A DNA stretch of 64,000 bases, from sequence record NZ_CP110908.1. One strand, written 5' to 3'. Each line of letters begins with the position of its first letter. Position 1 is the first letter of the stretch. The notes beneath the pieces were generated by a model. It did no database searches, was not told the DNA's origin, and worked only from the letters and a program-made list of their open reading frames with translations. This DNA comes from a plasmid. Of the stretch, positions 30,631 to 51,063 are shown in pieces. The position numbers were made by a program, and so were the translations under genes.

Positions 30631-31005
30631 ATGAAGAACGCAACTCGCCTTCTGGTGATTTCGCTCGCCCTCATCCTGAGTGGCTGTGCATATTCCCCGA
30701 AGCAGGTTGAAGCCTCAAGACCGCTTGTAAATCAAGCCGCTTCGACCGATCTCCACGCTATGGCAGCTAACCTGCAACAACCTCTGAACACCCTGCCGCA
30801 GGGCGCTACTCTTAGCGCCAATGGCACCACCTTTACCCTGGGTCAGCGCTATGTCTCTGCCCTGGGGCTGGAATGCATTGAACTGCTGCGTAACCGTAAC
30901 TACAACCAGTCGCAGTGCGGCGTGACCTGCAAGAACGGTGATACCTGGTATCTGATACCGCAACTGGAACAGGCATCTGCCAGCAACTTGCTTGCCGTTC
31001 AATAA
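30631..31005 (+). CDS. Lipoprotein (124 aa), first gene of kps region 1
   Basis: MKNATRLLVISLALILSGC lipobox signal peptide; ORF 30487-31005 trimmed to this ATG. Confidence 0.6.
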   Translation: MKNATRLLVISLALILSGCAYSPKQVEASRPLVNQAASTDLHAMAANLQQPLNTLPQGATLSANGTTFTLGQRYVSALGLECIELLRNRNYNQSQCGVTCKNGDTWYLIPQLEQASASNLLAVQ

Positions 31006-31007
31006 TT

Positions 31008-32786
31008 TTGAAGAGAAATGTTGTGAAGATAACGAAATTTCGGCAATTGAGTGCCATTCTGCTGCTGGCCTGCGCCTCTTGCGCTGCCATTGCCGCCCCT
31101 TCTAAGGAAGATGCTCAGGCCTTTGGAATGAACACTCCGGCAGATACCGGCGACGGCCGACTGCAACTCGGCGGTGATCAGGCGATGAGCGGTCAGGCGA
31201 ACACCTCCTCTACCACCGGGACTTTTACGCAGCAAAACCGCCAGGGCATGTTACTGCCGGGCGAGTCCGACGTGCGTAAATTACTCCCGCAGTCCGAGTC
31301 CGGTCTGCCCCCTCCTTACGGTGCCAACCTGTTTGCCGGTGGCTATGAAACCGAGCGCAGCGACGGTCTGACTGATAATTACCTGATCGCTCCCGGCGAT
31401 AAGCTGAATATCTGGATCTGGGGCGCAGTCAATTTCTCCAACGTCGTCACCGTTGATAATCAGGGTAATATTTTCATCCCTGATGTCGGGCCGATTAATG
31501 TAAAAAACGTAGCAGCAAGTAAAGTCAATAACTTAGTCACCAGCCACATCAGTGAAGTATTTACCAATAACGTTAATGTTTACGTAAATTTACTTACGGC
31601 AACGCCGGTCAGCGTATTTGTGACCGGCCCGGTGATCCGTCCGGGGCAATATGCCGGCCAGTCTTCCGACAGCGTGCTCTATTTCCTGAAACGCGCAGGC
31701 GGTATCGACTCCGATCGCGGCAGCTACCGTCATATTAAGGTGTTGCGTCAGAACCGGGTCATTCAACAGATCGACCTGTACGAGTTTATGCAGCAGGGCA
31801 AAATGCCGAAGCTGGCGCTGAAGGATCAGGACGTGATCCTGGTTGAACCGCAGGGGCCGATGATCAACGTGGCCGGTAAAGTGCGTAACCCGTTCCGCTT
31901 CGAGTTAAAGAACAGCAGCGCGCTGGGCTCCGAGCTTATCGATTACGCTCTGCCGCTCGCGAAGGTGAGCCACGTGGGCGTGATTGGCGATCGCGCCAGC
32001 GGCCCGTTCTCGGTCTATATGCCATATAAAGATTTTGATCGCATTCAGCTGAGCGACGGCGACAAAGTGCTGTTCAACGACGATATGCATGCCCAGGTTT
32101 ACGACGTTCAGGTGATGGGCAGCTACCGTGGGCCATCTTACTTCACCGTGCGTAAAGAGACCCGACTGCACGATCTGCTTAACCATATTCCGATTGACCC
32201 GAACATGGCAGATTACGGCTCGATCTACATCATGCGTAAGAGCGTGGCCGCGCGGCAGAAAGAGATGCTGGAAGACTCCCTGAACCGCCTGGAGCGCAGC
32301 GTGTTTACCGCGCCAGCAAATTCCGACGGTGAGGCTTCCATTCGTACCAAAGAAGCCGAGCTGGTAATGCGCTTCGTGGAAAAAGCCCGCAAGATCCAGC
32401 CGCTGGGGAAAGTGGTGGTGTCGGATAAGGGCGTGATTGCCAACATCCTGCTGGAACAGGGCGACCAGATTGTGATCCCGAACAAGACCGACCTGATTCA
32501 GGTGGGTGGCGAAGTGATGATGCCGCAGGCGGTGGTCTACAACAAAAGCGCCACCCTGGAAGACTATGTGGCCTGGGCGGGCGGCTTTACCGATCGTGCA
32601 AACGATAAGCGTATTGCCGTGGTACATGCCAACGGGCTGATGGAGTTTAAAGACGGCGGTGATGTGATGGCAGGCGATCAGATTCTGGTCATGCCGAAAG
32701 TGGACAGCAAAATGATGCAGTCCATCAAAGATATTACCCAGGTCATCTATCAGGTTGCCGTGGCGGCCAACGTGGTCCTGAATTAA
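31008..32786 (+). CDS. kpsD: Capsule polysaccharide export protein KpsD
   Basis: 592 aa, collinear similarity to E. coli KpsD (DKLNIWIWGA...NQGNIFIPDVGPINV...RAGGID). Confidence 0.85.
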   Translation: MKRNVVKITKFRQLSAILLLACASCAAIAAPSKEDAQAFGMNTPADTGDGRLQLGGDQAMSGQANTSSTTGTFTQQNRQGMLLPGESDVRKLLPQSESGLPPPYGANLFAGGYETERSDGLTDNYLIAPGDKLNIWIWGAVNFSNVVTVDNQGNIFIPDVGPINVKNVAASKVNNLVTSHISEVFTNNVNVYVNLLTATPVSVFVTGPVIRPGQYAGQSSDSVLYFLKRAGGIDSDRGSYRHIKVLRQNRVIQQIDLYEFMQQGKMPKLALKDQDVILVEPQGPMINVAGKVRNPFRFELKNSSALGSELIDYALPLAKVSHVGVIGDRASGPFSVYMPYKDFDRIQLSDGDKVLFNDDMHAQVYDVQVMGSYRGPSYFTVRKETRLHDLLNHIPIDPNMADYGSIYIMRKSVAARQKEMLEDSLNRLERSVFTAPANSDGEASIRTKEAELVMRFVEKARKIQPLGKVVVSDKGVIANILLEQGDQIVIPNKTDLIQVGGEVMMPQAVVYNKSATLEDYVAWAGGFTDRANDKRIAVVHANGLMEFKDGGDVMAGDQILVMPKVDSKMMQSIKDITQVIYQVAVAANVVLN

Positions 32787-32840
32787 CCCTTATAGCGGGC
32801 TCGCCTCATCGCGGGCCCGTTCTGTTATATCGGCCTTCTC

Positions 32841-33641
32841 ATGCTTAAACCTGTTCTCAATCAAACGCCCCGCAGCTCGTTCCAGGTGCTGCGCGATGTA
32901 ACGTTTGGCCTGCTTATACGTGAACTGAAAACACGATTTGGGAGTTACCGACTGGGGTATGCCTGGGCGCTGTTGGATCCGTTGTTGATGATTGGTCTGT
33001 TTAGTGCGATTTTCGGGATGCGTGGACACAGTGGTTTTGGTGGCGCGCCTGCACCGCTCTTTATTACTGCGGGCTATCTGCCATTTATCTTTTTTAAGAA
33101 TGTGGTAAGCAAGCTGCAATCGGCAGTCAATGCTAACAAAGGGTTGTTTTGCTATCGGCAAGTGACACCTTTCTCCACTTTTATCGCCCGGTTTATCCTT
33201 GAAACCATTGTTGGCATGATCGTCGGCGGCATTCTTATCCTGGGATTATTATGGTTTGGGTTTGATGCCGTACCAGCTGACCCGCTGAAAATCATTCTTA
33301 TCTATATGCTGTTTATGGTTTTTTCGTTCTCATTGGGCGTCGTCTTTTGCATTACGGGCAACTTAGTTAACGAGGCCGAAAAATTCCTCGGTTTGTTAAT
33401 GATGCCGTTAATGTTTATCTCCTGCGTTATGTATCCCCTGGCAAGTATCCCGTCACTGTATCAACACTGGTTTTTATGGAATCCCCTGGTACACGCCCTT
33501 GAGCTAATACGCTCTGGCTGGATTGCCGGCTACGCCAGCCCGAACGCCAGTTGGACTTATCTGTTTGGGGTGACACTGGTACTGCTAACGTTTGCTATGA
33601 GTAGCTATCGCCTGAGCCATCGCCGACTGATTGCCAGCTAA
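32841..33641 (+). CDS. kpsM: Capsule ABC transporter permease KpsM (ABC-2)
   Basis: 266 aa, multi-TM. Confidence 0.85.
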   Translation: MLKPVLNQTPRSSFQVLRDVTFGLLIRELKTRFGSYRLGYAWALLDPLLMIGLFSAIFGMRGHSGFGGAPAPLFITAGYLPFIFFKNVVSKLQSAVNANKGLFCYRQVTPFSTFIARFILETIVGMIVGGILILGLLWFGFDAVPADPLKIILIYMLFMVFSFSLGVVFCITGNLVNEAEKFLGLLMMPLMFISCVMYPLASIPSLYQHWFLWNPLVHALELIRSGWIAGYASPNASWTYLFGVTLVLLTFAMSSYRLSHRRLIAS

Positions 33642-33651
33642 GGGGGATAGC

Positions 33652-34302
33652 ATGATTGTTCTGGAAAACGTCTCTAAATATTACCCCACCAAATTTGGCC
33701 GCAATTATGTTTTGCGTGATGTAAACATTACTCTCCCTCGCGATCGCAACATCGGTATTTTGGGTGTTAACGGGGCAGGAAAATCTACCCTTCTTCGCCT
33801 TCTAGGCGGCATGGATATGCCTAATAAAGGCAAGGTCACCCGCCACTGCCGTGTCTCGTGGCCCCTTGCCTTGAATGGAGGTTTCCAAGGAAGCATGACC
33901 GGACGAGAAAACACCCGCTTTGTTTGCCGTATTCATGGAGTAAGGGATACGCAAGCTATTGAGGAGTGGGTAAAAGAGTTCTCGGAAATCGGCCAGCACT
34001 ATGAGTTGCCGATTAAAGGCTACTCTAGCGGGATGAGATCGAAATTTTCTTTTGCTGTAAGTATGGCCTTTGATTTTGATATCTATCTTACTGACGAAAT
34101 CATGTCTGTTGGCGATGCCCGATTTAAGCAGAAATGTATAGATACTTTTAACCAAAAACGCGAGACAGCCAGCCTGATCATGGTTTCACATGATATGAAG
34201 AACCTGCGCCAACAATGCGATATGGGGATTTTGCTGCGCAACAGTGCTCTTGAGGTGTTCGATAATATCGACGACGCCATCCGCATTTATCAAAGTTTGT
34301 AA
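33652..34302 (+). CDS. kpsT: Capsule ABC transporter ATPase KpsT
   Basis: MIVLENVSKYY...GVNGAGKSTLLRLLGG...YSSGMRSKFSF; GGGGGA SD. Confidence 0.85.
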   Translation: MIVLENVSKYYPTKFGRNYVLRDVNITLPRDRNIGILGVNGAGKSTLLRLLGGMDMPNKGKVTRHCRVSWPLALNGGFQGSMTGRENTRFVCRIHGVRDTQAIEEWVKEFSEIGQHYELPIKGYSSGMRSKFSFAVSMAFDFDIYLTDEIMSVGDARFKQKCIDTFNQKRETASLIMVSHDMKNLRQQCDMGILLRNSALEVFDNIDDAIRIYQSL

Positions 34303-34317
34303 TCAACCGATAAAATC

Positions 34318-35520
34318 ATGACCCAACCAATTCGTTCTAACAAAGCATCAGGAATGATGCGTAAGCTGCGCAAGTTAAAAACTAAACCAAAACATTTTAT
34401 TGTCGACTCCAGTGGATTCCGTCTTGCTCAGCAATCATGGAAACAGAGCCTTAAACTCGGCAGTTTCATGTGGGTAGTAGCCTTTTTTTCCATTGCCGTA
34501 GTCTATTTTGGTTTCATCGCTTCGGATCGTTATGTAAGCCGGGCGCAGCTAGTCATTAAACAAGCTGACCAAATAAAAATGTTGCCTGACGCACTGTCAA
34601 TGCTGGGCATTGGTGGAAGTAATCACGAAGATGTATTGCTGGTTCAAGACTATCTGAACTCTCCAGATATGCTTGCAAAACTGGATAAAGAGTTGGGTCT
34701 GAAAGCACATTATCAAAGTCATGATATAGATTATTTCTCTCGGTTATCAGGTGATGTAAGCCAGGAGGATTTCCTCAAATATTATCGGGATCATTTGTCA
34801 TTGCGTCTCGATGACCTCTCAGGTGTGCTTACAGTGGAACTGCAAGCATTTGATCCTGCTTATGGTCAACGCGTGGTGAACCTGATGCTTAAAGAGTCAG
34901 AGGGTTTCATCAATAAACTCGGACATCAGGTAGCACTGGAACAACTGGCCTTCGTCGAAAAAGAGGTCGATCGTGCTTATCAGCGTGTACAGGATGAAAA
35001 AGCGAAGGTTCTTGATTTTCAGAACCAACATAATCTGATTAGCCCCGAATCGACCAGTACTGCCCGTCTGGGTGTGGTCAGCCAGATCGAAAGCGAACTG
35101 GCAAGCCAGCAGGCGCAGCTGAAACAGCTGCAGAGTTATATGAAGGACACGGCGCCTGCTGTCATTTCTATTAAGGCCAGAGTGGAGGCTTTAACTGAGC
35201 AACTGGCCCAGGAAAAAGCCAGACTTACTGGCACGGATCAAAATGCAATGAATGAAGTGACCGCTCGCTATATGGATATTCAGACTCAGGCTACTCTGGC
35301 CGTCGATCTTTATAAAAGCGGTCTTATCAGCCTGGAACAAGCTCGGGTTGAGGCGTACCGCAAGCTTAAACACTTGCTTGTTGTGAGCCAGCCAACGATT
35401 GCACAAGATGCAGAGTACCCACGACGCCTCTATAACCTTGCAACAATCGGTGTACTTCTTTGTCTACTGTATGGATTAATCGTGATGGGACTCGCGACAC
35501 TTCGTGAACATCAGGATTAA
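34318..35520 (+). CDS. kpsE: Capsule export inner-membrane protein KpsE
   Basis: 400 aa, similar to KpsE (YLNSPDMLAKLDKELGL..., C-terminal TM). Confidence 0.85.
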   Translation: MTQPIRSNKASGMMRKLRKLKTKPKHFIVDSSGFRLAQQSWKQSLKLGSFMWVVAFFSIAVVYFGFIASDRYVSRAQLVIKQADQIKMLPDALSMLGIGGSNHEDVLLVQDYLNSPDMLAKLDKELGLKAHYQSHDIDYFSRLSGDVSQEDFLKYYRDHLSLRLDDLSGVLTVELQAFDPAYGQRVVNLMLKESEGFINKLGHQVALEQLAFVEKEVDRAYQRVQDEKAKVLDFQNQHNLISPESTSTARLGVVSQIESELASQQAQLKQLQSYMKDTAPAVISIKARVEALTEQLAQEKARLTGTDQNAMNEVTARYMDIQTQATLAVDLYKSGLISLEQARVEAYRKLKHLLVVSQPTIAQDAEYPRRLYNLATIGVLLCLLYGLIVMGLATLREHQD

Positions 35521-35579
35521 AAAAATATCTAAAATAATTGTTTCTTTATTTTTTGCATAACAATTGTGTTACAAAGTTA

Positions 35580-36346
35580 GGTAATGACTCCAACTTATTG
35601 ATAGTGTTTTATGTTCAGATAATGCCCGATGACTTTGTCATGCAGCTCCACCGATTTTGAGAACGACAGCGACTTCCGTCCCAGCCGTGCCAGGTGCTGC
35701 CTCAGATTCAGGTTATGCCGCTCAATTCGCTGCGTATATCGCTTGCTGATTACGTGCAGCTTTCCCTTCAGGCGGGATTCATACAGCGGCCAGCCATCCG
35801 TCATCCATATCACCACGTCAAAGGGTGACAGCAGGCTCATAAGACGCCCCAGCGTCGCCATAGTGCGTTCACCGAATACGTGCGCAACAACCGTCTTCCG
35901 GAGACTGTCATACGCGTAAAACAGCCAGCGCTGGCGCGATTTAGCCCCGACATAGCCCCACTGTTCGTCCATTTCCGCGCAGACGATGACGTCACTGCCC
36001 GGCTGTATGCGCGAGGTTACCGACTGCGGCCTGAGTTTTTTAAGTGACGTAAAATCGTGTTGAGGCCAACGCCCATAATGCGGGCAGTTGCCCGGCATCC
36101 AACGCATTCATGGCCATATCAATGATTTTCTGGTGCGTACCGGGTTGAGAAGCGGTGTAAGTGAACTGCAGTTGCCATGTTTTACGGCAGTGAGAGCAGA
36201 GATAGCGCTGATGTCCGGCGGTGCTTTTGCCGTTACGCACCACCCCGTCAGTAGCTGAACAGGAGGGACAGCTGATAGAAACAGAAGCCACTGGAGCACC
36301 TCAAAAACACCATCATACACTAAATCAGTAAGTTGGCAGCATCACC
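35580..36346 (-). mobile_element. IS1 with 8-9-bp TSD (CAAAGTTAG)
   Basis: Ends GGTAATGACTCCAACTTATTGATAGTG and ATCAGTAAGTTGGCAGCATCACC; InsA/InsB ORFs present. Confidence 0.9.
35595..36291 (-). CDS. insAB: IS1 transposase InsA/InsB (programmed -1 frameshift gives InsAB')
   Basis: [32 protein letters not shown] (InsA) and InsB-like ORF 35595-36107. Confidence 0.85.
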
Positions 36347-36456
36347 CAAAGTTAGCTTGGTATATTTTCTAATACCAGCAAAAAGACTTCACATTACAAT
36401 TCGTGGGAGAGTCTTTTTCCCACAATCTCTTCCATCATCCTTAAAATTTTACAGCT

Positions 36457-37563
36457 ATGCGAAAACTAAAAAAATTTTTTAGGCATCCTGGAATTTTTGT
36501 TCGGGATCATTTGAATAAGAAATATCCAGTCATTCGTAATGAGATCGCATGCTCTGCGGATGAAGAACATATTTTAATTCGTCATGACCTCGAAATGGAG
36601 GCTCAGATCAAAATTGACTTCCCTATTGATGTTGTTTTTACTTGGGTAGATGATTCGGATCCAAAATGGCAAAAACGTTATAATTACTTTAAGCATTCAA
36701 CAAATAAAGATAGCTTAGGTGAATATGCAACAGATCCGGCCAGATTTAGTAATCATGATGAGTTAAGGTATTCTCTTCAAAGCGTCTTAAAATTTTTACC
36801 TTGGGTTCGGCGAATCTATATTGTTACTGATAATCAATGTCCGGAATGGCTCAAAGCAAGTGAAAAAATTAAGATAATTGATCACAATGAAATAATTCAA
36901 GAGCAATATTTACCAACATTTAATTCTCATGTAATTGAAGCCCATTTACATAAAATTCCTGATTTAGCTGAACACTTTATCTATTTTAACGACGATGTAT
37001 TCGTTGCAAGACCACTTCCCCCAGGCCATTTTTTTAGGAGCAATGGTATTGCATCTTTGTTTATGTCGAAGAAAAGCCTTGCTGTTATGCAAGAAAAAGG
37101 CAAAAACACTCCTACACTTTCAGCCTCACTAAGATCAGCATCTATTTTAAATAATAAATTTAGTTTAATCATCGATAATCCTTTAGTACATACATATGTA
37201 CCACTTCGAAGAACTATGTTTGAAGAAGCATGGAAGGTTTACGAATCTGAGCTTTCAACGTTTCTATCTAATAAATTCAGGACGAATGATGACATCAATA
37301 TGGCAACGTTTTTTGTACCTTGGTTATGTTATATACGCGGTACGGCTGTACCATCCAGGGATATTTGCTATTACTTCAATGTCAGATCCCCGGCGGCGGC
37401 AACATATTTTAAAGCCCTAGAAGTCGCTAAAAAGAAAGGAACTCTTCCACATTCTTTTTGTGCCAATGATTTTAATACAAAAATAACAGCCAACTCTGAT
37501 TATAAAGGGTTGCTAGAATCCGCACTTAAGCAATATTTCGAACACGGTAATAAAAATGATTAA
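36457..37563 (+). CDS. Stealth-family capsule hexose-1-phosphotransferase (kps region 2)
   Basis: 368 aa with Stealth conserved regions ([34 protein letters not shown]); ~30 percent GC. Confidence 0.75.
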
Positions 37564-40500
37564 AAGAAAAGTTAAGAAACTTGTTAAAAACCCAAAATTA
37601 TTCTTTTCTGATATGGTTATTAAGCATAGTGATAAAGTAAGCTATCTTAAGCCAAAGAAAATGGAAGGCAATTATCAATTTACAGTTATATCTGCGATAT
37701 ATAATGTAGATCGGTATTTGAACGAGTTTATTGAAAGCATAATTAAACAACGCCTCGATTTCAAAAAACACATTCAACTAATACTTGTTGATGACGGATC
37801 TATTGATAATTCTGCAGAGATTATTCAACGCTGGCAAAAAAAATACCCCCTTAATATATCTTATATTTACAAGGAAAATGGGGGGCAAGCATCTGCAAGA
37901 AACATTGGCCTTAAACATGTTAAAACTGAATGGGTTACATTTATTGATCCAGATGATTTTGTCAGTAATGATTACTTCCTTGAAATAGATAGATTTATTT
38001 TTAAAAACAGTAATTTAAGTATGGTTGCATGTAATTTAATTTTTTATTACGAAGATAAAAAACAATTTAGTAACACACATCCATTAAGATTTAGATTTGA
38101 AAACGATGCTGTTTATCCAGTTAACGATTTAAAAAAATCTTTTCAACTATCCGCTAGTTCAGCTTTTTTCTTATCAAAACTAATAAAAGACAACAACGTA
38201 ATTTTTGATGAGAGAATTAAACCAAATTTTGAAGATGCCCATTTTATCGCCTCATACCTTTCGCACCCAATTAAATCATTTGTTGGATTTGCTAAAAAAC
38301 CAATTTATTACTATAGAAAAAGAAGTGATGGTTCTTCGACTCTTGATACATCATGGGAGAAGCCTGGCCGTTATAGTGATGTACTCGAATATGGTTACTT
38401 AAATATCCTCGAAAAATATAAATCTAAATTTAATACAGTCCCTTTACATATACAGCGTAGTGTTTTATATGATATGCTTTGGCATTTTAAACGAATTGTT
38501 AACAATCCTGAAAAGGTAAATTTCCTAACAGCCGAACAAAAAAATAATTACCTAATTTTGATTGATAAAGTTTTTAAATTTATTGACAAAAAGACCATTC
38601 TCGATTTTGAACTAGCAGGTTCTTGGTTTTACCATAAAGTTGGTATTATGGCCTGTTTTAAAAATTTGTCTATCGATAATCAAATAGCATATATAGAAGA
38701 TATTGATCGCGCAAAGAACTTAATCCAAATTCGTTACTTTACGCATGACATTACACTTGAACAATTCTTTGTTAACAGCGATGAAATATATCCATCATTC
38801 GCGAAAACGATTAAACATGATTTTTTAGAAAGAACTTTTGTGCTTGAGAGAAGAGTTTGGGTTAATTTTAAAAATATTAATGATATTTTAACCTTAAAAA
38901 TAAGTGGCAAATTTGCCAGATTGTCAATTGCGGGTAAACAATATAAAACAGGTGTTCCTTTTACTATTATTAAAGATTTCTTTGATAGCCAGATTCCTTC
39001 CTATGTTCAAGATGAAAAATATCAGAATGCATGGCTACTAATGGATCGCGATACACAGGCGGATGATAACGCCGAGCATCTTTATCGATATATATCCAGA
39101 CAACATCCAGACCAACCTATATTTTTTGTTTTAAGTAAAAATTCACACGACTGGATACGATTAGAAAAAGAAGGATTTAATTTAATTGAGTTTGATAGTC
39201 AGCAACACAAAGCAGCGGTTATGAGTTGCAGCAAAATAATTAGCTCTCATGCTGATAAATATGTGACAAATTTACTAGGACCAAAAATGCTTTCAGGAAG
39301 ACATTTTGTTTTCCTTCAACACGGTATAACCAAAGATGACCTTTCAAATTGGCTTAATCAGAAAGAAGCTATAGATTGTTTTGTAACGTCTACAGAAAGT
39401 GAATTCAAATCCATTTGTGACGATTATAGTAGATATAAGTATTCTCAAAAAGAAGTAAAATTAACAGGCTTTCCAAGACATGATCATTTGATTAACTGTA
39501 AAGGTAATACAGAGAAATTAATTGTAATTATGCCTACATGGCGAAGAAGTATCGTTGGCAATGTAATCGGTGATGGAAATAGCAGAATGTTAAATCCTGA
39601 CTTTATGAAAACAACATTTGCTAGTCATTGGTATGATTTATTGCATTCTAAAGAGCTTAAAATACTTTCTGAAAAATCAGGCTATAAGATTGCATTTTAT
39701 CCTCACGCTAATATCCAACCTTATCTAAAGCAATTTGAGACCCCCGAATATATTGATGTGATTAATCATAGCTCAGGGTCAATTCAGGATATTTTCAGCA
39801 GAGCAGCTTTAATGATAACTGATTATTCATCGGTTGCATTTGAAATGGCTATTCAAGACAAACAGAGTATTTACTATCAATTTGATGAACATGAATTATT
39901 CTCTGGCGGGCATGTGTATTCGAAGGGTTATTTTGACTATCGAACGAATGGCTTTGGGCCAGTAGTAACTACACTAAACTCATTAATAGATGAATTAAAG
40001 AAAATAATACATAATAATTGCGTACCTACAGCTGTGATCAAAGAAAGAATCGATCATACTTTTCCTAATAGAGACGGTCGCTCTTGCCAAAAAACATTTG
40101 AAGCAATTACAGAATTGGATAAACCCCTTCCCAATAACTTTATAGATATTGATATTGTAGAATCATATGCAGAACATGCCACAAGACAGCAACACTGGAC
40201 CTTATCTCATGCAAGATGGAAATATCTACTTAGTGTATCAGCAAAAAACAATAATATTATAAAGTTAAAAATTGCGGAAAGTTTGCGTGAACAAGGTAAA
40301 TTTACAGATGCTGATAAAATTTTAACAAATATAAATACTACTAAAAAAGACAATAATGCTTTAGCTGTAGAAAAAGCATTATTAGCTATGCGTAGACAGC
40401 AATGGGAACTTGCAATCTACTATTTCAAATCTAGTGAAATTCGCAACGAAAAAGAAGCTATTAGTTACCTTCGCTGTTTAGCTGAATTAGAAATGGATAA

Positions 40501-41740
40501 TGAGTTCAACATAGTTGATACATCCATATACAATACTTTTAAAAGAAAATATGAAGATTATAAAAACTATTGGAAATTAATCTGCGAAGGAAAAAAAGAG
40601 AAAGCGGCTTTAATTTTAGAAAAAAGGATAGTAACATGTACGCATGATGAGCTTGTAACTATGCAACCGCAACTGTTACTTGCAAATACATATTGCCAGT
40701 TAAAACGTTTAACTGATGCAAATCAGCAATTATCCAATTTCGAAAAACATACTAACAACTCTCCATTCTGTCGAGAAATAATAGCACAGTTAGCTTATCT
40801 TAGAAAAAACTGGAATAAAGTTATAGTTCAAGTCAGAACCGCTTATCCAACAATAAATGATACTCCTGAGCCAGTCGTTGTATTAACAATCAAAGCATTA
40901 CAAAATCAGAAGAAAGAATTATCTGCTGCGTTAAATAAAGTAACGAAGCCAGAGACAATAATAAGCAAGTCAATATATCTTCGCGATAAAGGTTTGCTTA
41001 ACCAAGCGCGGTCGCTATTAACTGATAACCGTAATATATTGATTGAGAATAACAACATTAATAATTATAATATCGAGATAGCTAAAATAGAAATTTTACT
41101 TCACAACTGGCAGAAAGCTCTTTCACATTTAGAGCAGTTAACTAAGCTTGATTATGAAACAGGCATGATGAAATTAAAGTGTCTCGCCGAATTACGTAGA
41201 CCTAAAGCAATTCGCCGCGCCTTAAGTGATAGTGAATGGTTCCAAAGCTTGCCACCTTATCAGTATAATTTTGCGGAGTCGCTATTTGAATATTCCAAGG
41301 GTAACATCCAAAGGGCTACAACATTATTAAGCAAAGCATTAATTGAATACCGCCCCGATCTGTTGATCATGCATAAACCTTATTTATGGCTTGCTCGTTG
41401 TTTACGTGAATTGGGGCAACTCGATGCTGCGCATAATGCTCTTCTGGAGCATGAAAAATTATTAAATAATGATCCTCAATGCAGAGAACAAATTGCTCGC
41501 TTAGCAATTAACAATAATAAGTTGAAAAAAGCCATATTTCAACTTGAAAAGGCATATCCAGATTACTCAAGTTTGCCTTTAGATTTAGCAACTATTTTAA
41601 TATTTGCATTAAGAAGTGAAAATAATCACACTCAAGCTGAAAAAGTTATTAAGTCTCTGCCGATTGATTTTGCTTCGAAAATCCCTATTGATACGGAATA
41701 TTCTTTTGAAAATATGTTAAAAGAACCGGCACATTCCTAA
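37556..41740 (+). CDS. Giant multidomain capsule biosynthesis protein: GT2 glycosyltransferase, then CDP-glycerol glycerophosphotransferase (TagB/TagF-like), then TPR repeats
   Basis: 1394 aa. N-terminal [14 protein letters not shown]...[12 protein letters not shown] (GT2). Central ~520-800 [13 protein letters not shown] and FPRHDHL (TagF-like). C-terminal ~550 aa of repeated TPR-like helices. Confidence 0.7.
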
Positions 41741-41802
41741 ATTATTAAAGTGATGCTAAAAACTTCAACTATTTCAACTCATTACTTAACGGAAATATTT
41801 TA

Positions 41803-43542
41803 ATGTCATCTCTTGACTCTCTTGGCATTGAGTACAATTTAAAACAATCCTCATTAAAAGATGATTACTTATCCTTTTACGAGCGCGAAATATCATACAG
41901 ACTTCCTAATAGTTTTACCCTGCTAATCATAACGAATGAAAAAATAGAAGATGTTGCTTCGGTTTATTCAAAGAAATATCCACTATCAAAAATCATTGTC
42001 GCGTCATATGGATATGAAAGCTATACAACTTCGTTTTTAGATAATGTGGTTTTCCACGCTTTCATAAATCTAGATGCGCTTATCAATCAGATTTCTTTAA
42101 TTTATTTTGATGCGGTTATTGAACATAGCTCTAATCGAAAATCACATAAACTAAAACTGTTTAAGAAACTTTTCTTCAGATTACCAAAAGGAGGGGTTTA
42201 TTTCATCCAAGAATTACATGCTAAGTTTATTTCTGGATTAATCGATTGCGACGGCCCTGACATTCTTGACCTTATAAACGAAGTTTCCCAATTAAAAATA
42301 TCAAATAATGACAGAAGAAAAAACGCTGACCCTTATGCCGTAGCACTTGCTGAATGTTGCGAAAGTATATTTATAAAAAGTAAGTTAGGTGTCTTGGTCA
42401 AAGGTAAAGCTTCTTTCAAAAGTTTAAGAAGCAACGAAGCTAAAAACATGATCAACTCTGGTTCATTGAAAGGGAGTATAATTGTATCAAATGATAATGA
42501 ATTTGAATTTGTACATTCAATAACATCTGTTATAACTCCAACTGGTGAGCCATGGCGAAATCCAGCCAAATTTAAAATACCAGAATCGTTTTTAGCTAAA
42601 TACCAAAGTGTACATTGTGATGTTGGACAGATCGCATATATGGATGGATATTTGTTGCCCGATTCCTTTAGAATGCAGCATCACAAAAAACTTACAAATC
42701 GTAATATAATCTCTTTAGTAGCTGATATTTGTTTATTAAAAGATGAAAAACCAGATCCGATTCATCTTGCAGGTGAATACTTTTATCTTGATTCGGAATA
42801 TCCGGGTCATTTCGGGCATTTTACTTCTGAGGTAGTTTCAAGACTATGGGCATGGGAAGAGATTAAAACAAGATCTCCTAATGCAAAAGTATTAATTGGG
42901 CTTGAAAAAGGAAAATCATTGCCAAGTTTTATTGAAACTATATTATCATGTTATCACATTAGTAGAAATGAAATACAAACCTTCGATAGTAGTATCACTG
43001 TTGATGTTCTTTATGCTGCCACTCCTTACTATGCTATCGGCAATCACATAAATCCAAAAATAAAAGATGTTTGGGAGAGAATTGGTGAGAGTACTAATGA
43101 TGGTATTTCCGGGATTATTGGCAATCGATTATTTATTTCTAGACCTGAAGGCGGGGAAAGAAAATGTCTAAATGCTGAAAAACTAGAACGTATATTCTTT
43201 GAAAGAGGTTTTGAGTTTTACAACCCTGAAAAATATTCCTGGAAAGATCAGGTTAAAACATTTTCCAGTGCTGACGTTATTGCTGGCTATGCGGGAAGCG
43301 GCACTTTCAACACCATGTTTGCTAAAGGTTCTAAAAAAATATTTATCATTGGTTCAGACTCATATACTGCAACAAACGAGCATTATATCTGCGCCATTAA
43401 AGGTTATGATTTAAATTATTACCTTGGTGATTCATTAGTAAAACATGGCAATGTATTTTCACTAAAAGCATTTAAATCTGATTATAACTTTAATTATGAA
43501 CGAGATGAAGAATCACTCATTGATGCATTAAGTAAAATATAA
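41803..43542 (+). CDS. DUF563/GT61-like capsular glycosyltransferase (kps region 2)
   Basis: 579 aa; EYFYLDSEYPGHFGHFTSEVVSRLWAW matches the DUF563 core. Confidence 0.6.
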   Translation: MSSLDSLGIEYNLKQSSLKDDYLSFYEREISYRLPNSFTLLIITNEKIEDVASVYSKKYPLSKIIVASYGYESYTTSFLDNVVFHAFINLDALINQISLIYFDAVIEHSSNRKSHKLKLFKKLFFRLPKGGVYFIQELHAKFISGLIDCDGPDILDLINEVSQLKISNNDRRKNADPYAVALAECCESIFIKSKLGVLVKGKASFKSLRSNEAKNMINSGSLKGSIIVSNDNEFEFVHSITSVITPTGEPWRNPAKFKIPESFLAKYQSVHCDVGQIAYMDGYLLPDSFRMQHHKKLTNRNIISLVADICLLKDEKPDPIHLAGEYFYLDSEYPGHFGHFTSEVVSRLWAWEEIKTRSPNAKVLIGLEKGKSLPSFIETILSCYHISRNEIQTFDSSITVDVLYAATPYYAIGNHINPKIKDVWERIGESTNDGISGIIGNRLFISRPEGGERKCLNAEKLERIFFERGFEFYNPEKYSWKDQVKTFSSADVIAGYAGSGTFNTMFAKGSKKIFIIGSDSYTATNEHYICAIKGYDLNYYLGDSLVKHGNVFSLKAFKSDYNFNYERDEESLIDALSKI

Positions 43543-43650
43543 CCTATATTGGGTTGTTTTTTAAGTGCTATAATCTTCTCAAAGTCTGATGTAGCCCCCT
43601 GAAACACCGGACAGTAGCTGTATCTCCAGATAAGAGACAGGCTTGAATAT

Positions 43651-44046
43651 ATGTCTAACACTAACGCCAATTTTGAGATGACCGGGATCCTGTTAGGGCA
43701 AGAAGTCCGTAAACGTAAAACTCCTCAGGAGAAGATCGCCATTATCCAGCAGACGATGGAGCCGGGTATGAATGTCTCCCATGTCGCCCGCCTGCATGGT
43801 ATCCAGCCCAGCCTGCTGTTTAAGTGGAAGAAGCAATATCAGGAAGGCAGCCTCACCGCCGTTGCGGCTGGAGAGGAAGTCGTTCCTGCTTCTGAGCTTA
43901 CTGCTGCTCTGAAGCAGGTCCGGGAGCTTCAGCGCCTTCTGGGCAAGAAGACGATGGAAGTTGAGATCCTGAAAGAAGCCGTGGAGTACGGTCAGTCGCG
44001 AAAATGGATAGCGCACGCGCCCTTGTTGCCAAAGGACGGGGAATAG
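43651..44046 (+). CDS. IS3-family transposase OrfA
   Basis: Similar to IS2 InsC ([25 protein letters not shown]). Confidence 0.85.
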
Positions 44047-44885
44047 CCATGGTCTGCCGGACCATGGGCGTGTCGCGTGCGCAACTGTCACTGCGGATTA
44101 ACCGTTCTGCCGACTGGCAGGACAGGCGCTGTAACCGGCGTAATGAAGAAGCAGACGCAGAAATACTGTCGGCTATCCTCAACATTATCAGCGATATGCC
44201 GAGTTATGGTTATCGACGCGTGTGGGGCATCCTGCGCAAGCAACGTCGCACAGAGGGACAGCTACCTGTGAATGCCAAACGGCTTTACAGGATAATGCGT
44301 GAGCATAACCTGTTGTTGTTGCATCACAAACCAGAGCGACCGAAGCGTGAACATAAGGGCAAGATAGCGGTGGCAGAAAGCGATATGCGCTGGTGTTCAG
44401 ATGGCTTCGAGTTCGGCTGCGACAACGGCGAAAAACTGCGGGTAACGTTCGCGCTGGACTGCTGCGACCGTGAGGCCATAGACTGGGCAGCAAGCACGGG
44501 AGGCTATGACAGTTCGACCGTGCAGGATGTGATGCTGAGGTCGGTGGAAAAGCGCTTCGGCGACAGGTTGCCCGACACAGCGGTGCAGTGGCTGACGGAT
44601 AACGGTTCAGCGTATACCGCGTATGAAACGCGGAGGTTCGCGAGAGAGCTGAATCTGGAGCCCTGCACAACAGCGGTGAGCAGCCCGCAGAGTAATGGCA
44701 TGGCCGAACGGTTCGTGAAAACGATGAAAGAAGACTATATCGCGTTCATGCCAAAACCGGATGTGAGAACAGCACTGCGAAACCTTGCAGTAGCGTTCAC
44801 GCATTACAATGAAAACCACCCGCACAGCGCGCTGGGATATCACTCCCCGAGGGAATACCGGCGGCAGCGGACATCGTTAACTTAA
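44004..44885 (+). CDS. IS3-family transposase OrfB
   Basis: 293 aa, similar to IS2 InsD. Confidence 0.85.
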
Positions 44886-44949
44886 GATACAAAAGCTGTT
44901 CGGAGATGGAGGGTCAAGATCAAATCTTCTCAAAGTCACTCATTGAAAA

Positions 44950-45272
44950 AAACAATTAGAGCATAGTTCGACGTGGCGGTGGATATCCGTAAAAGCTCCC
45001 CGACCTTTGGTCAGTGGGTGGGCGTGCATCTGTCTGGCGAGAACAAGCGTCAGCTGTGGATCCCGGAAGGTTTCGCCCACGGCTTTATGACCCTGAGCGA
45101 CACCGCAGAGTTCCTGTACAAAACCACCAACTACTATGCGCCGGAGAGCGACCGTGGCATCCGCTGGAACGATGAGACCATTGCGATTACATGGCCGGAA
45201 ATCGACAGCGAGATCCTCACCTCCGCCAAAGACAGCGTTGCCAAATCCTTCCCTGACGCAGAGTACTTCTGA
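44950..45272 (+). pseudogene. rmlC: dTDP-4-dehydrorhamnose 3,5-epimerase (RmlC) 3' fragment
   Basis: ...WIPEGFAHGFMTLSDTAEFLYKTTNYYAPESDRGIRWNDETI... C-terminal RmlC sequence with no N-terminus; followed by hairpin CACGCCCCGCAGTGACGCGGGGCGTTTT. Confidence 0.75.
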
Positions 45273-45307
45273 GTCACACGCCCCGCAGTGACGCGGGGCG
45301 TTTTCTG

Positions 45308-47326
45308 ATGCACAGAGCGCACATGAAATTCTATACAGGTTCAGCCGGGATCCTGGCCCGAAAGGCACAGCTCGAGCCGATGCTGGGTCACCCGTTACAC
45401 GCCTTCAAATCCAGCATGCAGCTGGCGCAGGACGATGTACTGGTCGGCTGGGGCCAAAAAGCTAATACCCGCCAAATAAAACAAAAAGCCCAGGACCTCG
45501 GCCTGCCGTACTGGCAGCTGGAAGATGGCTTTATCGGTTATATTGGCCACCCCGCCAGAGGGGGCAAGGCCGTCTCCCTGATCGCAGATCCTGTGGGCAT
45601 TTACTACGACGCTCGCCAGCCCAGCCGCCTTGAGCAGCTGATCGCCACCCCGTGCGATACCATGCTGCTGGCGCGGGCTGAAGCGCTGACCAGCGAACTG
45701 CTGCGTCTTGGCATCACCAAGTACAATTGCTATGCCGCGGGCAGCGCTCTACCCGACGCGCTGGCCGCCCGCCTGCACAGCGACGCCCGTCCTAAGGTGC
45801 TACTGATCGACCAGGTTGCGGGGGATCTCTCCATTCCCGGCGCGCTCGCCAGCGAGGCGGATTTTGTTGAAATGGTTGCCGCTGCGCGGCGTAACCACCC
45901 CGGCGCCCGCCTGCTGCTGCGTACCCATCCGGATACCCGGCTGGGCAAGAAGCGCGGCGTGCTGGCGCAGATGCAGCTGGATGACGTGGAAAGGGTCACC
46001 GATCACTGCCATCCTCATGCCCTGCTGAATGAGGTGGAAGCAGTCTATACCGTCTCCTCGCAGATGGGGTTTGAAGCCCTGCTGCTGGGCAAAGCGGTCT
46101 GGTGCTTCGGCATGCCGTTTTACGCCGGCTGGGGATTGACCCATGACAGCAAATCCTGCCCGCGTCGCCAGGCGCAGATTAGCCTGCCGCAGCTGGTGGC
46201 AGCGGCGCTGATCCTCTATCCCCGCTATCTGGATCCGGTGCTGGGCCAGCGCTGCGAAGTGGAGCAGGTGCTTGAGGTCATTGCGGATCAGCTGAATCCG
46301 GCCCCGCGCTATCGCCGTCTGTATATGGTGGGCTTCTCGCTGTGGAAACGCGCCTTTATGCGCGCCTTCTGTCAGCCGCTGGCTGAGGAGCTGCGCTTTG
46401 TGCGCACCCCGCCCAAACGGCTGGCCGCTGACGAGCAGGTGCTGGTGTGGGGCAGTCGTTATCCCGAACTGGCAAACGCAATTCGGGTGGAGGATGGTTT
46501 TATCCGCTCCCGGGGACTGGGCTCGAACCTGTGCCGCCCTTCCTCGCTCTCCATCGACCCGGTGGGGATCTACTTCGACAGCCGCCATCCGAGCGGGCTG
46601 GAGCAGTTGCTCAACCAGCAGCAGCTCAGCGAACAGGCGCTGGAACGCGGCGCCGCGCTGGTGGACATGCTCCGCCAGCATGGGGTCAGCAAGTATAACG
46701 TCGGCACCGTGCAGCCGTTCACCGCGCCGGCCGACGGGCGAGCGCTGGTGCTGGTGGTGGGCCAGGTCGATGGCGATGCCTCGATCCTCACCGGCAGCCC
46801 GGTCATTCGCAGCAATGAACAGCTGCTGTGGGCCGTGCGTGCCGCCCGGCCAGAAGCGCATATCCTGTTTAAACCGCATCCGGACGTGGTGGCGGGAAAC
46901 CGGGCCGGTGCCATCTCGGCCGAATGCCTGGCGCGCTGCGTTGACAGCCAGGTGCTGGATCTCGGTCTCACCAGTCTCTATCCCCATGTGGATGAGCTGC
47001 ATACCATGACCTCCCTCAGCGGGTTCGAAGCGCTGGTGCAGGGAGTGAAGGTCGCTACATGGGGCCAGCCGTTCTACAGCGGCTGGGGGCTGACCGAAGA
47101 TATCCACCCGGCGGAGCGCCGTCAGCGCACCCTGCCCCTGGCGGCACTGGTTTACCTGACGCTGGTCGCCTATCCGCGCTATATCGACTGGCAGAGTGGC
47201 CTGTGGATGAGCCCGGAACAACTGATCCGCCAGCTGGCAGCGCAGGGAAACTCCTCATCGCAGAAGGCCAGCCGCTGGCAGCGCTGGCAGATCAAGCTGA
47301 GCTATCTGGCACAAACATTTCGTTAG
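45308..47326 (+). CDS. kpsC: Capsule polysaccharide export protein KpsC (beta-Kdo transferase)
   Basis: 672 aa, duplicated KpsC domains; ~60 percent GC. Confidence 0.85.
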   Translation: MHRAHMKFYTGSAGILARKAQLEPMLGHPLHAFKSSMQLAQDDVLVGWGQKANTRQIKQKAQDLGLPYWQLEDGFIGYIGHPARGGKAVSLIADPVGIYYDARQPSRLEQLIATPCDTMLLARAEALTSELLRLGITKYNCYAAGSALPDALAARLHSDARPKVLLIDQVAGDLSIPGALASEADFVEMVAAARRNHPGARLLLRTHPDTRLGKKRGVLAQMQLDDVERVTDHCHPHALLNEVEAVYTVSSQMGFEALLLGKAVWCFGMPFYAGWGLTHDSKSCPRRQAQISLPQLVAAALILYPRYLDPVLGQRCEVEQVLEVIADQLNPAPRYRRLYMVGFSLWKRAFMRAFCQPLAEELRFVRTPPKRLAADEQVLVWGSRYPELANAIRVEDGFIRSRGLGSNLCRPSSLSIDPVGIYFDSRHPSGLEQLLNQQQLSEQALERGAALVDMLRQHGVSKYNVGTVQPFTAPADGRALVLVVGQVDGDASILTGSPVIRSNEQLLWAVRAARPEAHILFKPHPDVVAGNRAGAISAECLARCVDSQVLDLGLTSLYPHVDELHTMTSLSGFEALVQGVKVATWGQPFYSGWGLTEDIHPAERRQRTLPLAALVYLTLVAYPRYIDWQSGLWMSPEQLIRQLAAQGNSSSQKASRWQRWQIKLSYLAQTFR

Positions 47327-47415
47327 CACACTATTTATCCCGATTTATTAAAGAAAAACGGTCATCAAGCCGTTAACTCACCTGTCTCATCAACGGAACC
47401 GATCTGGGAAAAAAA

Positions 47416-48660
47416 ATGGAAGAGCAAGCTATCCGCCATCTGCTGAATGGCCGCCGATATCTTTTATTACAAGGACCGATGGGCCCCTGCTTTTCACGTC
47501 TGGCAAGCTGGTTGCAGAGCAGCAAGCGTGAAGTGAAGCAGGTCTGCTTTAATGCCGGGGACTCATGGTATGCCGCGAAAGAGACCGCGCTGCACTACAC
47601 CGGCTCAGTAAAAAATTTTGCCTTCTGGCTGCGCGAGTTACATAAAACCTACCCCTTCGACACCATCGTCTGTTTTGGTGACTGTCGCCCGATGCATATC
47701 GAAGCGAAGAAGTGGGCGCGCAGCAAATCCATCGACTTCCTGGCATTTGAAGAGGGCTATTTCCGTCCCTTCTACATCACCCTGGAAAAAGGGGGCGTGA
47801 ATGCCTTCTCCTCGATGCCCATTGATGCGAAGTATTATCGCGAGCAGCCGCTGCCGGAGCTGAAAACCCCAACGCCGTGGAAACCGAGTTCCTTTAACCG
47901 TGCCGCCCATGCCATGCTCTACTATGCGGCGGGCTGGTTTGGCCGCCATCGCTACCGGGGCTACCGCCACCACAAGTCGTTCTCCCCGTGGTATGAGATG
48001 CGCTGCTGGTTCCGCGCCGGTCGCCGTAAGCTGTGGTATCGCTGGCAGCAGCGCCACATGCTGAGCCATATCACTGAAAAACTGGATAACCAGTACTACC
48101 TGGCAATTTTGCAGGTCTACAACGACAGCCAGATTATTCATCACAGCCCGTATAAAGACGTGCGTGACTATATTGAAACCGTGATCCGCTCCTTTGCCCG
48201 CCATGCGTCGAAAGAGCGCTATCTGGTGTTCAAGCATCACCCGATGGATCGTGGTCACCGTTTTTACGGCATCCTGATTAACAAGCTGACCGAAAAGTAT
48301 GACGTCAGCGGCCGGGTGCTCTATGTCCACGATCTCTCCCTGCCCGCCCTACTGACCCACACCCGGGGCGTGATCACCGTGAACAGCACCGCCGGCCTGT
48401 CGGCGCTGATCCATAACAAGCCGCTCAAGGTGATGGGCAAAGCGCTGTACGACATCGAAGGGTTAACCTGGCAGGGGCCGCTGAACCAGTTCTGGCAGGC
48501 GGATTTTGCTCCAGATGCAAAACTGTTCCAGCGTTTTCGTACCCACCTGCTCTATCAAACGCAGATCAACGCCGTCTTTTACGGCAAGTCCGACTGGCTG
48601 AACATCCCGACAGAAATTCCCCTGACGACACCGCTTGCCGATTCCGAGCTCGAACGCTAA
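47416..48660 (+). CDS. kpsS: Capsule polysaccharide export protein KpsS
   Basis: 414 aa (RYLLLQGPMGPCFSRLASWLQ..., CFGDCRPMH). Confidence 0.85.
   Translation: MEEQAIRHLLNGRRYLLLQGPMGPCFSRLASWLQSSKREVKQVCFNAGDSWYAAKETALHYTGSVKNFAFWLRELHKTYPFDTIVCFGDCRPMHIEAKKWARSKSIDFLAFEEGYFRPFYITLEKGGVNAFSSMPIDAKYYREQPLPELKTPTPWKPSSFNRAAHAMLYYAAGWFGRHRYRGYRHHKSFSPWYEMRCWFRAGRRKLWYRWQQRHMLSHITEKLDNQYYLAILQVYNDSQIIHHSPYKDVRDYIETVIRSFARHASKERYLVFKHHPMDRGHRFYGILINKLTEKYDVSGRVLYVHDLSLPALLTHTRGVITVNSTAGLSALIHNKPLKVMGKALYDIEGLTWQGPLNQFWQADFAPDAKLFQRFRTHLLYQTQINAVFYGKSDWLNIPTEIPLTTPLADSELER

Positions 48661-48772: not shown

Positions 48773-51063
<2,291 letters not shown>

Follow-up and report, generated by a model that had tools for sequence, protein, structure and literature searches.

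What does a three-part protein encoded in the capsule region of a resistance plasmid make, and how unusual is its design? The question is raised by a 64,000-nucleotide stretch (sequence record NZ_CP110908.1; hereafter the window, to which all coordinates refer) of pCF1807-2, a 211-kb conjugative IncC/IncFIC plasmid of Citrobacter freundii CF1807 from human urine. At positions 37556 to 41740, on the plus strand, the window carries a gene for a 1,394-aa protein in which a family 2 glycosyltransferase (GT2) domain of GT-A fold, a TagF-like phosphotransferase domain and a long array of tetratricopeptide repeats (TPR) are joined. By analogy with characterised enzymes, it is highly probable that this protein is the serotype-specific GT-A/TagF-like polymerase of a plasmid-borne capsule (kps) locus of group 3B type and that it makes a poly(oligosaccharide phosphate).

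Integrity, domains and family of the polymerase

The open reading frame (ORF) of the polymerase comprises 4,185 bp, with an ATG start, 1,394 codons and zero internal stops, and the RefSeq coding sequence (WP_265969917.1, named 'CDP-glycerol glycerophosphotransferase family protein') matches it. Homologues of 1,394, 1,394, 1,370 and 1,389 aa, at 92, 89, 69 and 51% identity respectively, were full length and colinear with 98-100% coverage, which ruled out a frameshift or two-gene artefact. An earlier note, made from the letters of the window, had described one 1394-aa ORF at 37556-41740 uniting GT2, TagF-like and long TPR parts, and every part of this description held. Pfam placed GT2 (PF00535) at aa 43-181 (E 3.5e-25), Glyphos_transf (PF04464) at aa 487-852 (E 4.7e-35) and the TPR families ANAPC3, TPR_19 and TPR_14 at about aa 890-1335. 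The GT2 motif quoted in that note was also present, with DDGS at aa 79.

The domain search that the earlier note had proposed thus found both catalytic domains, and the proposed AlphaFold modelling agreed with it. Two AlphaFold2 models were built on homologue alignments, one of aa 1-880 (pLDDT 89.1, pTM 0.80) and one of aa 861-1394 (pLDDT 89.6, entirely alpha-hairpins); both halves were confident and their folds fitted the claimed domains. When the catalytic model was compared with known structures by Foldseek, it matched RmlT, TarS and TarP (GT-A fold) as well as TagF and TarL (E ~1e-15; ~13-16% identity), and its top 50 matches included none of the entries for capsule polymerases (Cps3D or Bcs3, for example). 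The TPR model matched only generic TPR proteins (APC/C, IFT-A, OGT). The PDB matches of the GT-A domain were GalT1, TarS, TarP and RmlT. A single-sequence PDB search with the polymerase gave GT2 matches only, and TagF (3L7I-M) and TarL (8VA1) appeared when a profile was used.

The protein begins with a basic segment (aa 1-40, net charge +9; 37556..37675) carrying the motif K-x-x-K-L-x-x-x-P-x-L-F-F-x-D. Its first 25 residues were modelled as a basic helix pair, and K5, K8, L9, P13, L15, F16 and D19 were at least 90% conserved in the homologue alignment. The GT-A (GT2) domain with a helical extension follows at about aa 40-370 (37676..38665), as placed by PF00535, PDB matches and conservation, and contains D131-P-D133-D134. 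A small beta-strand domain (aa 377-463; 38684..38944; pLDDT ~90 in the AlphaFold2 model) joins it to the TagF-like GT-B phosphotransferase domain (aa 487-855; 39014..40120), which was delimited by PF04464, profile alignment and Foldseek and carries Q588-H589-G590 and H717. The remainder is a TPR superhelix of about 34 helices and about 510 aa (aa 865-1375; 40148..41680), recognised by the Pfam TPR families, AlphaFold2 and Foldseek. It contains an internal tandem duplication: module 1 (aa 950-1118; 40403..40909) and module 2 (aa 1185-1355; 41108..41620) matched each other in an internal BLASTP at 26% identity (E 2e-15), and invariant residues recurred every 237 aa in the homologue alignment.

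D131, D133, D134, Q588, H589, G590 and H717 were invariant in alignments of 24 and 30 homologues. In Cps1B, a characterised enzyme of Actinobacillus pleuropneumoniae serotype 1, the exchanges D133A/D135A, H587A and H717A each kill activity (PMC5974469). The two enzymes were compared through Cps1B peptides decoded from the mutagenesis primers printed in that paper, namely GLKYVQTEWVTFI(D)P(D)DFL, LQ(H) with 11 further residues, and VIFAP(H)PNIEPYLNEFNIP. The polymerase was alike at 16 of 19 residues around D133/D135, 12 of 14 around H587 and 10 of 19 around H717. The stretch TFIDPDDF was the same in both proteins, and the catalytic residues lay within two residues of the Cps1B numbering. In a profile alignment, H584 of TagF ('RMHYLI') paired with H717 of the polymerase ('FPHANI'), the TagF active-site check covering two histidine-containing motifs of five.

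The protein therefore has the TagF fold, the two catalytic histidines (H444/H584 in TagF, H587/H717 in Cps1B) and the GT-A domain with a DxD motif that mark the GT-A/TagF-like class. Its ORF of more than 2.5 kb (4,185 bp) lies in the serotype-specific part of a capsule locus that depends on an ABC transporter, and it bears a TPR-rich domain at one terminus, which is a majority trait of the class and optional. On all the features tested it is, as judged from sequence, a previously uncharacterised member of this published class of capsule polymerases, of which CslB, Cps12B, Cps1B and Ccs2 have been characterised (Litschko 2018, PMC5974469).

The fusion had been called uncommon in the earlier note, and this was not borne out. 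The architecture is published and abundant (PMC5974469, PMC11666461), and most of the TagF-like enzymes that polymerise capsules bear, at either their N or their C terminus, a TPR-rich domain (PMC5974469). More than 2,000 homologues of the polymerase were found at E <= 1e-5. The top 120 were all 1,230-2,000 aa long and combined GT2 with PF04464, usually with TPR matches too, and came from Aeromonas, Cronobacter, Yersinia, E. coli, Enterobacter, Rahnella and others. A collection with one genome per species yielded at least 570 confirmed matches, including Neisseria, Pasteurellaceae, Campylobacter, Helicobacter and Actinobacteria. The three-part fusion itself is the standard design of the family and no discovery.

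Donor chemistry and proposed mechanism

Enzymes of the GT-A/TagF-like class are Mg2+-dependent and make polymers of beta-linked hexose and hexose-phosphate; in those characterised, the TagF-like domain takes hexose-1-phosphate from a UDP-sugar for transfer, the beta-glycosidic bond being formed by the GT-A domain (PMC5974469). By the same analogy, the product of the Citrobacter polymerase is most probably a sugar-phosphate polymer, a poly(oligosaccharide phosphate), rather than a glycerol-phosphate one. The earlier note had taken the central domain for CDP-glycerol glycerophosphotransferase-like. Its fold does belong there, as TagF resemblance and PF04464 attest, while the chemistry implied is probably wrong, given a QHG in place of WHG and no cytidylyltransferase gene in the window. 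According to a figure legend (Litschko 2024, PMC11666461), QHG is reported for hexose-phosphate transferases and WHG for TagF and for polymerases of glycerol-3-phosphate (Gro3P). QHG was found in the polymerase and in 86 of 87 related loci; the polymerase lacks the WHG of strict CDP-glycerol enzymes. The database name of the protein should accordingly be corrected towards sugar-phosphate polymerase.

Glycerol-phosphate capsule loci carry their own glycerol-3-phosphate cytidylyltransferase gene. Neither the 64-kb window (Pfam scans; tblastn best E 0.1) nor the related loci of Aeromonas, E. coli, Cronobacter and Yersinia (L004-L011) yielded a tagD/gct-like gene, and such a gene was present in only two of 78 species loci (L034 and L050). 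The TagD query used for tblastn detected clear homologues in these two loci; the search covered the window and the related loci. Since region 2 of the Yersinia bercovieri locus consists of the Stealth-family and polymerase genes only, housekeeping nucleotide sugars have to act as the donors.

[quoted passage not shown] TagF-like polymerases that make glycerol-phosphate capsules do exist, and one QHG relative (L050) has a tagD-like neighbour. However, the Gro3P polymerases Cps3D and Cps7D are of TagF-like/GT-B build, whereas the protein studied here is GT-A/TagF-like with QHG, its active-site peptides are near-identical to those of Cps1B, a UDP-sugar user, and the cytidylyltransferase gene was found neither in the window nor in the close loci. 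We regard glycerol chemistry as very improbable. Because of the QHG and the lack of a cytidylyltransferase gene in these loci, an assay with CDP-glycerol, as proposed in the earlier note, would probably be negative.

While the integrity of the ORF, the domain folds, the conserved catalytic residues, the gene context and the wide distribution come from the analysis itself, we infer the donor substrates, the product and the role of the TPR by analogy with the characterised enzymes. [quoted passage not shown] The Mg2+-dependent GT-A domain (D131-P-D133-D134) would add a sugar from a UDP-sugar in a beta-glycosidic bond, while the GT-B domain of TagF-like type (H589 in QHG, and H717) would transfer hexose-1-phosphate from a UDP-hexose, freeing UMP and making the phosphodiester. 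The C-terminal TPR superhelix, doubled here into two modules of about 235 aa, would be non-catalytic and would most likely serve oligomerisation together with processive elongation or the use of a lipid-linked primer. A Stealth-family protein, encoded upstream and translationally coupled, and a GT61 enzyme, encoded downstream, would probably prime or decorate the polymer, and KpsMTED would export it once finished.

Several points weigh against this picture. The polymerase is known from sequence and models alone, from which the donor sugars are not readable, and other parts of the host genome could in principle furnish an unusual donor. As for identity to a characterised enzyme, it was determined over the three short Cps1B peptides. 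The QHG/WHG rule was taken over from a figure legend (PMC11666461) and there were two loci with tagD-like neighbours to compare it with: in Photobacterium lutimaris (L050) a QHG enzyme has the tagD-like gene nearby, and in a Hydromonas metagenome-assembled genome (L034) the enzyme next to such a gene has PHG, so that neither bears the WHG reported for glycerol-phosphate transfer. The TPR data on Cps3D and Cps7D come from another architecture (N-terminal TPR, TagF-like/GT-B) and may not transfer. Finally, an IS1 remnant and an IS3-family element, both insertion sequences (IS), interrupt the locus, so that capsule expression is not guaranteed.

The TPR extension and the partner genes

The C-terminal extension tracks the kps context. 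Among species loci with the extension, 33 of 37 had kps genes, compared with 11 of 39 without it (Fisher p 5e-8, phylogeny uncorrected). This argues for some kps-specific role and fits any such role. The TPR region is basic (net charge +11, pI 9.0; repeat 1 alone +10), which, as weak evidence from composition, would suit contact with an anionic polymer or with the membrane. The two-module TPR is a minority form: a C-terminal region that long or longer occurred in five of 76 species loci and likewise in the Aeromonas, E. coli and Citrobacter group, and the common homologue form of about 1,260 aa covers just about 80% of the 1,394-aa query. The association with kps, the basic charge and the minority two-module form are new, while the enzyme family, the plasmid-borne cluster type and the idea of TPR docking (2018) were already known.

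According to the earlier note, the TPR part may dock the enzyme to the KpsMT/KpsE export machinery. Such docking (to KpsMT/KpsE or to KpsC/S) would be compatible with the polymerase function proposed here. It was raised in 2018 by the discoverers of the family (PMC5974469), agrees with the protein-protein contacts that TPR domains commonly carry, and draws on the 33 of 37 versus 11 of 39 loci given above. In the published experiments the TPR serves oligomerisation, processivity and the use of the primer instead. When Cps1B is made without its TPR, activity and product are unchanged and the dimer/trimer becomes a monomer (PMC5974469). In Cps3D the TPR forms the dimer interface (Litschko 2024, PMC11666461), and partial TPR truncation renders Cps3D and Cps7D more distributive and no longer able to extend a poly(Gro3P) primer (PMC11666461). 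The association itself, uncorrected for phylogeny, would fit recognition of a primer linked to 3-deoxy-D-manno-oct-2-ulosonic acid (Kdo) equally well, 11 kps-linked relatives lack the extension, and a conserved basic N-terminal motif, common to the polymerase, the Stealth protein and KpsE, offers an alternative targeting element. Docking as the main function of the TPR is thus conceivable, though we think it rather unlikely.

The N-terminal motif, (R/K)KLxKxP..FFxD, lies at aa 5-19 of the polymerase (37568-37612), aa 2-17 of the Stealth protein (36460-36507) and aa 15-30 of KpsE (34360-34407). It also occurs in the polymerase, Stealth protein and KpsE of Aeromonas and in the polymerase and Stealth protein of Cronobacter and Yersinia. 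To judge from its sequence, the motif may be a shared element for targeting to the membrane or to a complex, which would make it a docking device alternative to the TPR.

Directly upstream of the polymerase is a gene for a 368-aa Stealth-family protein (1,107 bp; 36457..37563, plus strand; Pfam Stealth CR1, CR2 and CR3), a predicted hexose-1-phosphate transferase, the end of this gene and the start of the polymerase gene overlapping by 8 nt. A Stealth gene of 365-370 aa stands in this position, often overlapping, in every close locus (L003-L011), and, in 23 of 78 species loci (each of them with kps context), directly upstream on the same strand. The pairing of Stealth and polymerase is kept from Enterobacterales to Neisseria and Pasteurellaceae. 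CslA, encoded just before the class member CslB in Neisseria meningitidis serogroup L, presumably belongs to the Stealth family as well, an assignment that draws on UniProt names and on the nomenclature paper of 2013. In that paper cslA is a capsule phosphotransferase gene of 1,101 bp just before cslB, and CsxA is 40% identical to the N. mucosa LcbA protein, which is itself 73% identical to CslA. Assayed as candidate transition transferases, CslA and Cps1A were inactive on Kdo2 and Kdo3 acceptors.

The third gene of region 2 (41803..43542, plus strand) encodes a 579-aa glycosyltransferase of the GT61 family (Pfam PF04577), the N-terminal half of which (about 330 aa) is of an uncharacterised type. 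GT61 accompanies the 92%-identical polymerase in L010 and L011, and is replaced in L004-L008 by an unrelated Asp2-like alpha/beta protein (L004 12191-13831; L005 14223-15878; L006 14438-16075; L008 13849-15078). BLASTP gave no match between the GT61 and Asp2-like third-gene proteins. A variable third gene fits serotype-specific decoration.

One speculative scheme would tie the Stealth protein to the TPR. The pair of Stealth protein and polymerase may be the hexose-phosphate counterpart of the CpsA/CpsC-CpsD system, with Stealth laying a short hexose-1-phosphate linker on the poly-Kdo glycolipid and the duplicated TPR recognising this linker to start processive polymerisation. We consider this scheme a long shot. 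If it were true, it would explain how poly(oligosaccharide phosphate) capsules are started, a matter left open by the inactive CslA and Cps1A, and the duplicated TPR of the subfamily of about 1,390 aa would be a variant tuned to another primer or chain length.

The plasmid capsule locus and its known relatives

The capsule cluster (31008-48660) is of mosaic composition. Region 1 comprises kpsD, for an outer-membrane polysaccharide export protein (31185..32786, RefSeq limits; Pfam Poly_export and SLBB), kpsM, for an ABC-2 permease (32841..33641; Pfam ABC2_membrane), kpsT, for the transporter ATPase (33652..34302, RefSeq limits; Pfam ABC_tran), and kpsE, for an inner-membrane export protein of the BexC/CtrB/KpsE family (34318..35520; NCBIfam TIGR01010 at 451.6 bits, cut-off 437.5), all on the plus strand. 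The KpsM, KpsT and KpsE neighbours named in the earlier note were therefore as claimed. Upstream of kpsD lies a small lipoprotein-like ORF of 124 aa (RefSeq) with an LSGC lipobox (30631..31005, plus strand), and a 124-aa ORF occupies the same place in the group-3B-type loci L004-L007. Region 3 consists of kpsC, of the beta-Kdo transferase family (45323..47326, RefSeq limits; Pfam Capsule_synth, E 1e-72), and kpsS (47416..48660; Capsule_synth, E 2e-89), again on the plus strand. As the same note had proposed, the polymerase stands as the capsule polymerase candidate of a kps locus, between kpsDMTE and kpsCS. A non-capsule role in lipopolysaccharide or enterobacterial common antigen was rejected, the gene being embedded between kpsE and kpsC here and in L004-L009.

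The gene order kpsD-M-T-E, region 2, kpsC-S, the low GC content of region 2 and the location on a plasmid are those of group 3B, and neither kpsF nor kpsU was found in the cluster, as is characteristic of this subgroup. GC content was 55% in kpsD, 46-48% in kpsMTE, 32-35% in region 2, 63% in kpsC and 56% in kpsS. An IS1 transposase remnant (35595..36107, minus strand; Pfam DDE_Tnp_IS1, E 6e-78) and an IS3-family element with two overlapping transposase ORFs (43651..44885, plus strand; Pfam HTH_Tnp_1 and rve, RefSeq) sit exactly on the boundaries between regions 1 and 2 and between regions 2 and 3. The mosaic GC content together with the boundary elements is consistent with assembly of the cluster by IS recombination. 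Megablast found no match to region 2 in 5,426 complete E. coli genomes, and the same was true of region 2 of the E. coli relative; in PLSDB the sole match to region 2 was the source plasmid itself. The cassette was thus not tied to any named K type, though its polymerase might conceivably be that of K11.

These IS elements, which split region 2 from regions 1 and 3, could also mean that the locus is a decaying plasmid passenger whose intact polymerase makes no capsule in its host, particularly as related plasmids carry degraded versions, either a TPR-only fragment (pKOX_NDM1-type) or a polymerase split by ISEc33. Against decay, each of the window's ten ORFs of the kps and region-2 genes was full length, the overlap of Stealth and polymerase genes was preserved, and a three-gene cassette at 92% identity occurred in independent samples with its three ORFs intact. 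IS1 moreover flanks four of six E. coli 3B clusters (K11, TBA_7, TBA_9, TBA_10; Hong 2023, PMC10433991). Decay is in our judgement unlikely, and a polymerase serving a capsule locus is preferred.

An IS-truncated remnant of a homologous polymerase, comprising the TPR part only (38% identity) and annotated as 'hypothetical protein', was seen in E. coli plasmid pEC4-NDM-6 (L002, 7028-8392) and on about 40 similar plasmids of the pKOX_NDM1/pEC4-NDM-6 type (IncFII/FIB; about 100-119 kb, mostly 110 kb). On pKOX_NDM1-type plasmids it is adjoined by an Asp2-like gene and kpsC/kpsS. A sister plasmid from Citrobacter sp. CRE-46 (L003, 10857-17292) has the Stealth gene and a polymerase split by ISEc33. 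From the remnants and this sister plasmid, it follows that plasmids of the pKOX_NDM1/pEC4-NDM-6 type once carried a related capsule locus.

Outside the cluster, a 484-aa OLD-family protein (AAA ATPase and TOPRIM nuclease; 27357-28811) is encoded upstream, beside IS fragments, and is a candidate anti-phage defence gene. Directly downstream of kpsS are an IS element and blaTEM-1 (100% match, 286 aa; 48920-50871), and AAC(3)-IId and IS26 lie further along the plasmid record. Since blaTEM-1 and AAC(3)-IId follow kpsS, capsule and resistance genes are physically linked on a conjugative plasmid.

A conjugative multidrug-resistance (MDR) plasmid is thus the bearer of a complete capsule cluster; clusters of its type have been a source of polymerases for vaccine antigens. 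Its uncharacterised serotype cassette of Stealth protein, polymerase and GT61 joins the group 3B repertoire. Capsule genes that move with resistance genes could alter the serum resistance and phage susceptibility of the recipient. The practical value is modest; the main interest lies in the roles of the conserved Stealth partner and of the TPR, which might be tested with the help of this locus.

The closest characterised system is Cps1B of A. pleuropneumoniae serotype 1 (1,246 aa; PMC5974469), which has the same succession of GT-A, TagF-like and C-terminal TPR parts. The boundary between catalytic and TPR parts lies near residue 858 in both proteins (the Cps1B constructs were Cps1B32-858 and Cps1B32-1246), the catalytic residues D133/D135, H587 and H717 of Cps1B correspond to D131/D133, H589 and H717, and both genes lie in region 2 of an ABC-transporter capsule locus. 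A duplicated TPR module makes the Citrobacter protein longer by about 150 aa. Unlike Cps1B, this protein belongs to a kps cluster of group 3B carried by an enterobacterial plasmid and has GT61 as its accessory gene.

CslB of N. meningitidis serogroup L, Cps12B and Ccs2 of Haemophilus influenzae type c are of the same class and make poly(oligosaccharide phosphate) from UDP-sugars. In its position before cslB and in its annotated role, cslA (1,101 bp) parallels the Stealth gene (1,107 bp). With 877 aa (2,634 bp), CslB is too short for a TPR array of the size seen here, and the three enzymes are encoded in chromosomal loci of Neisseria and Pasteurellaceae, in contrast to the plasmid locus.

Cps3D and Cps7D of A. 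pleuropneumoniae serotypes 3 and 7 (with a crystal structure of Cps3D; PMC11666461) likewise combine a TPR and two catalytic domains in one chain. Their order is reversed, with an N-terminal TPR, a TagF-like domain (WHG, Gro3P from CDP-glycerol) and a GT-B galactosyltransferase. Their loci encode the CDP-glycerol-dependent primer enzymes CpsA and CpsC, whereas the Citrobacter locus lacks these and has Stealth instead. TagF of Staphylococcus epidermidis and TarL of S. aureus share with the polymerase both the TagF-like GT-B fold and the pair of catalytic histidines, and residues 3-194 of S. epidermidis TagF align to its GT-A part. They are Gram-positive polyol-phosphate polymerases using CDP-glycerol or CDP-ribitol, with WHG reported for TagF in the figure legend of PMC11666461, and show no match to the TPR in the profile alignment.

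As a locus, the cluster resembles the group 3B kps clusters, which are plasmid-borne, in some cases flanked by IS1, and common to E. coli, Citrobacter, Leclercia and Enterobacter (PMC10433991; PMC13171598; PMC13171606). The arrangement kpsDMTE, region 2, kpsCS, the large MDR plasmid and the low-GC region 2 are the same in both, and its kpsC is 95-98% identical to the copies in E. coli loci.

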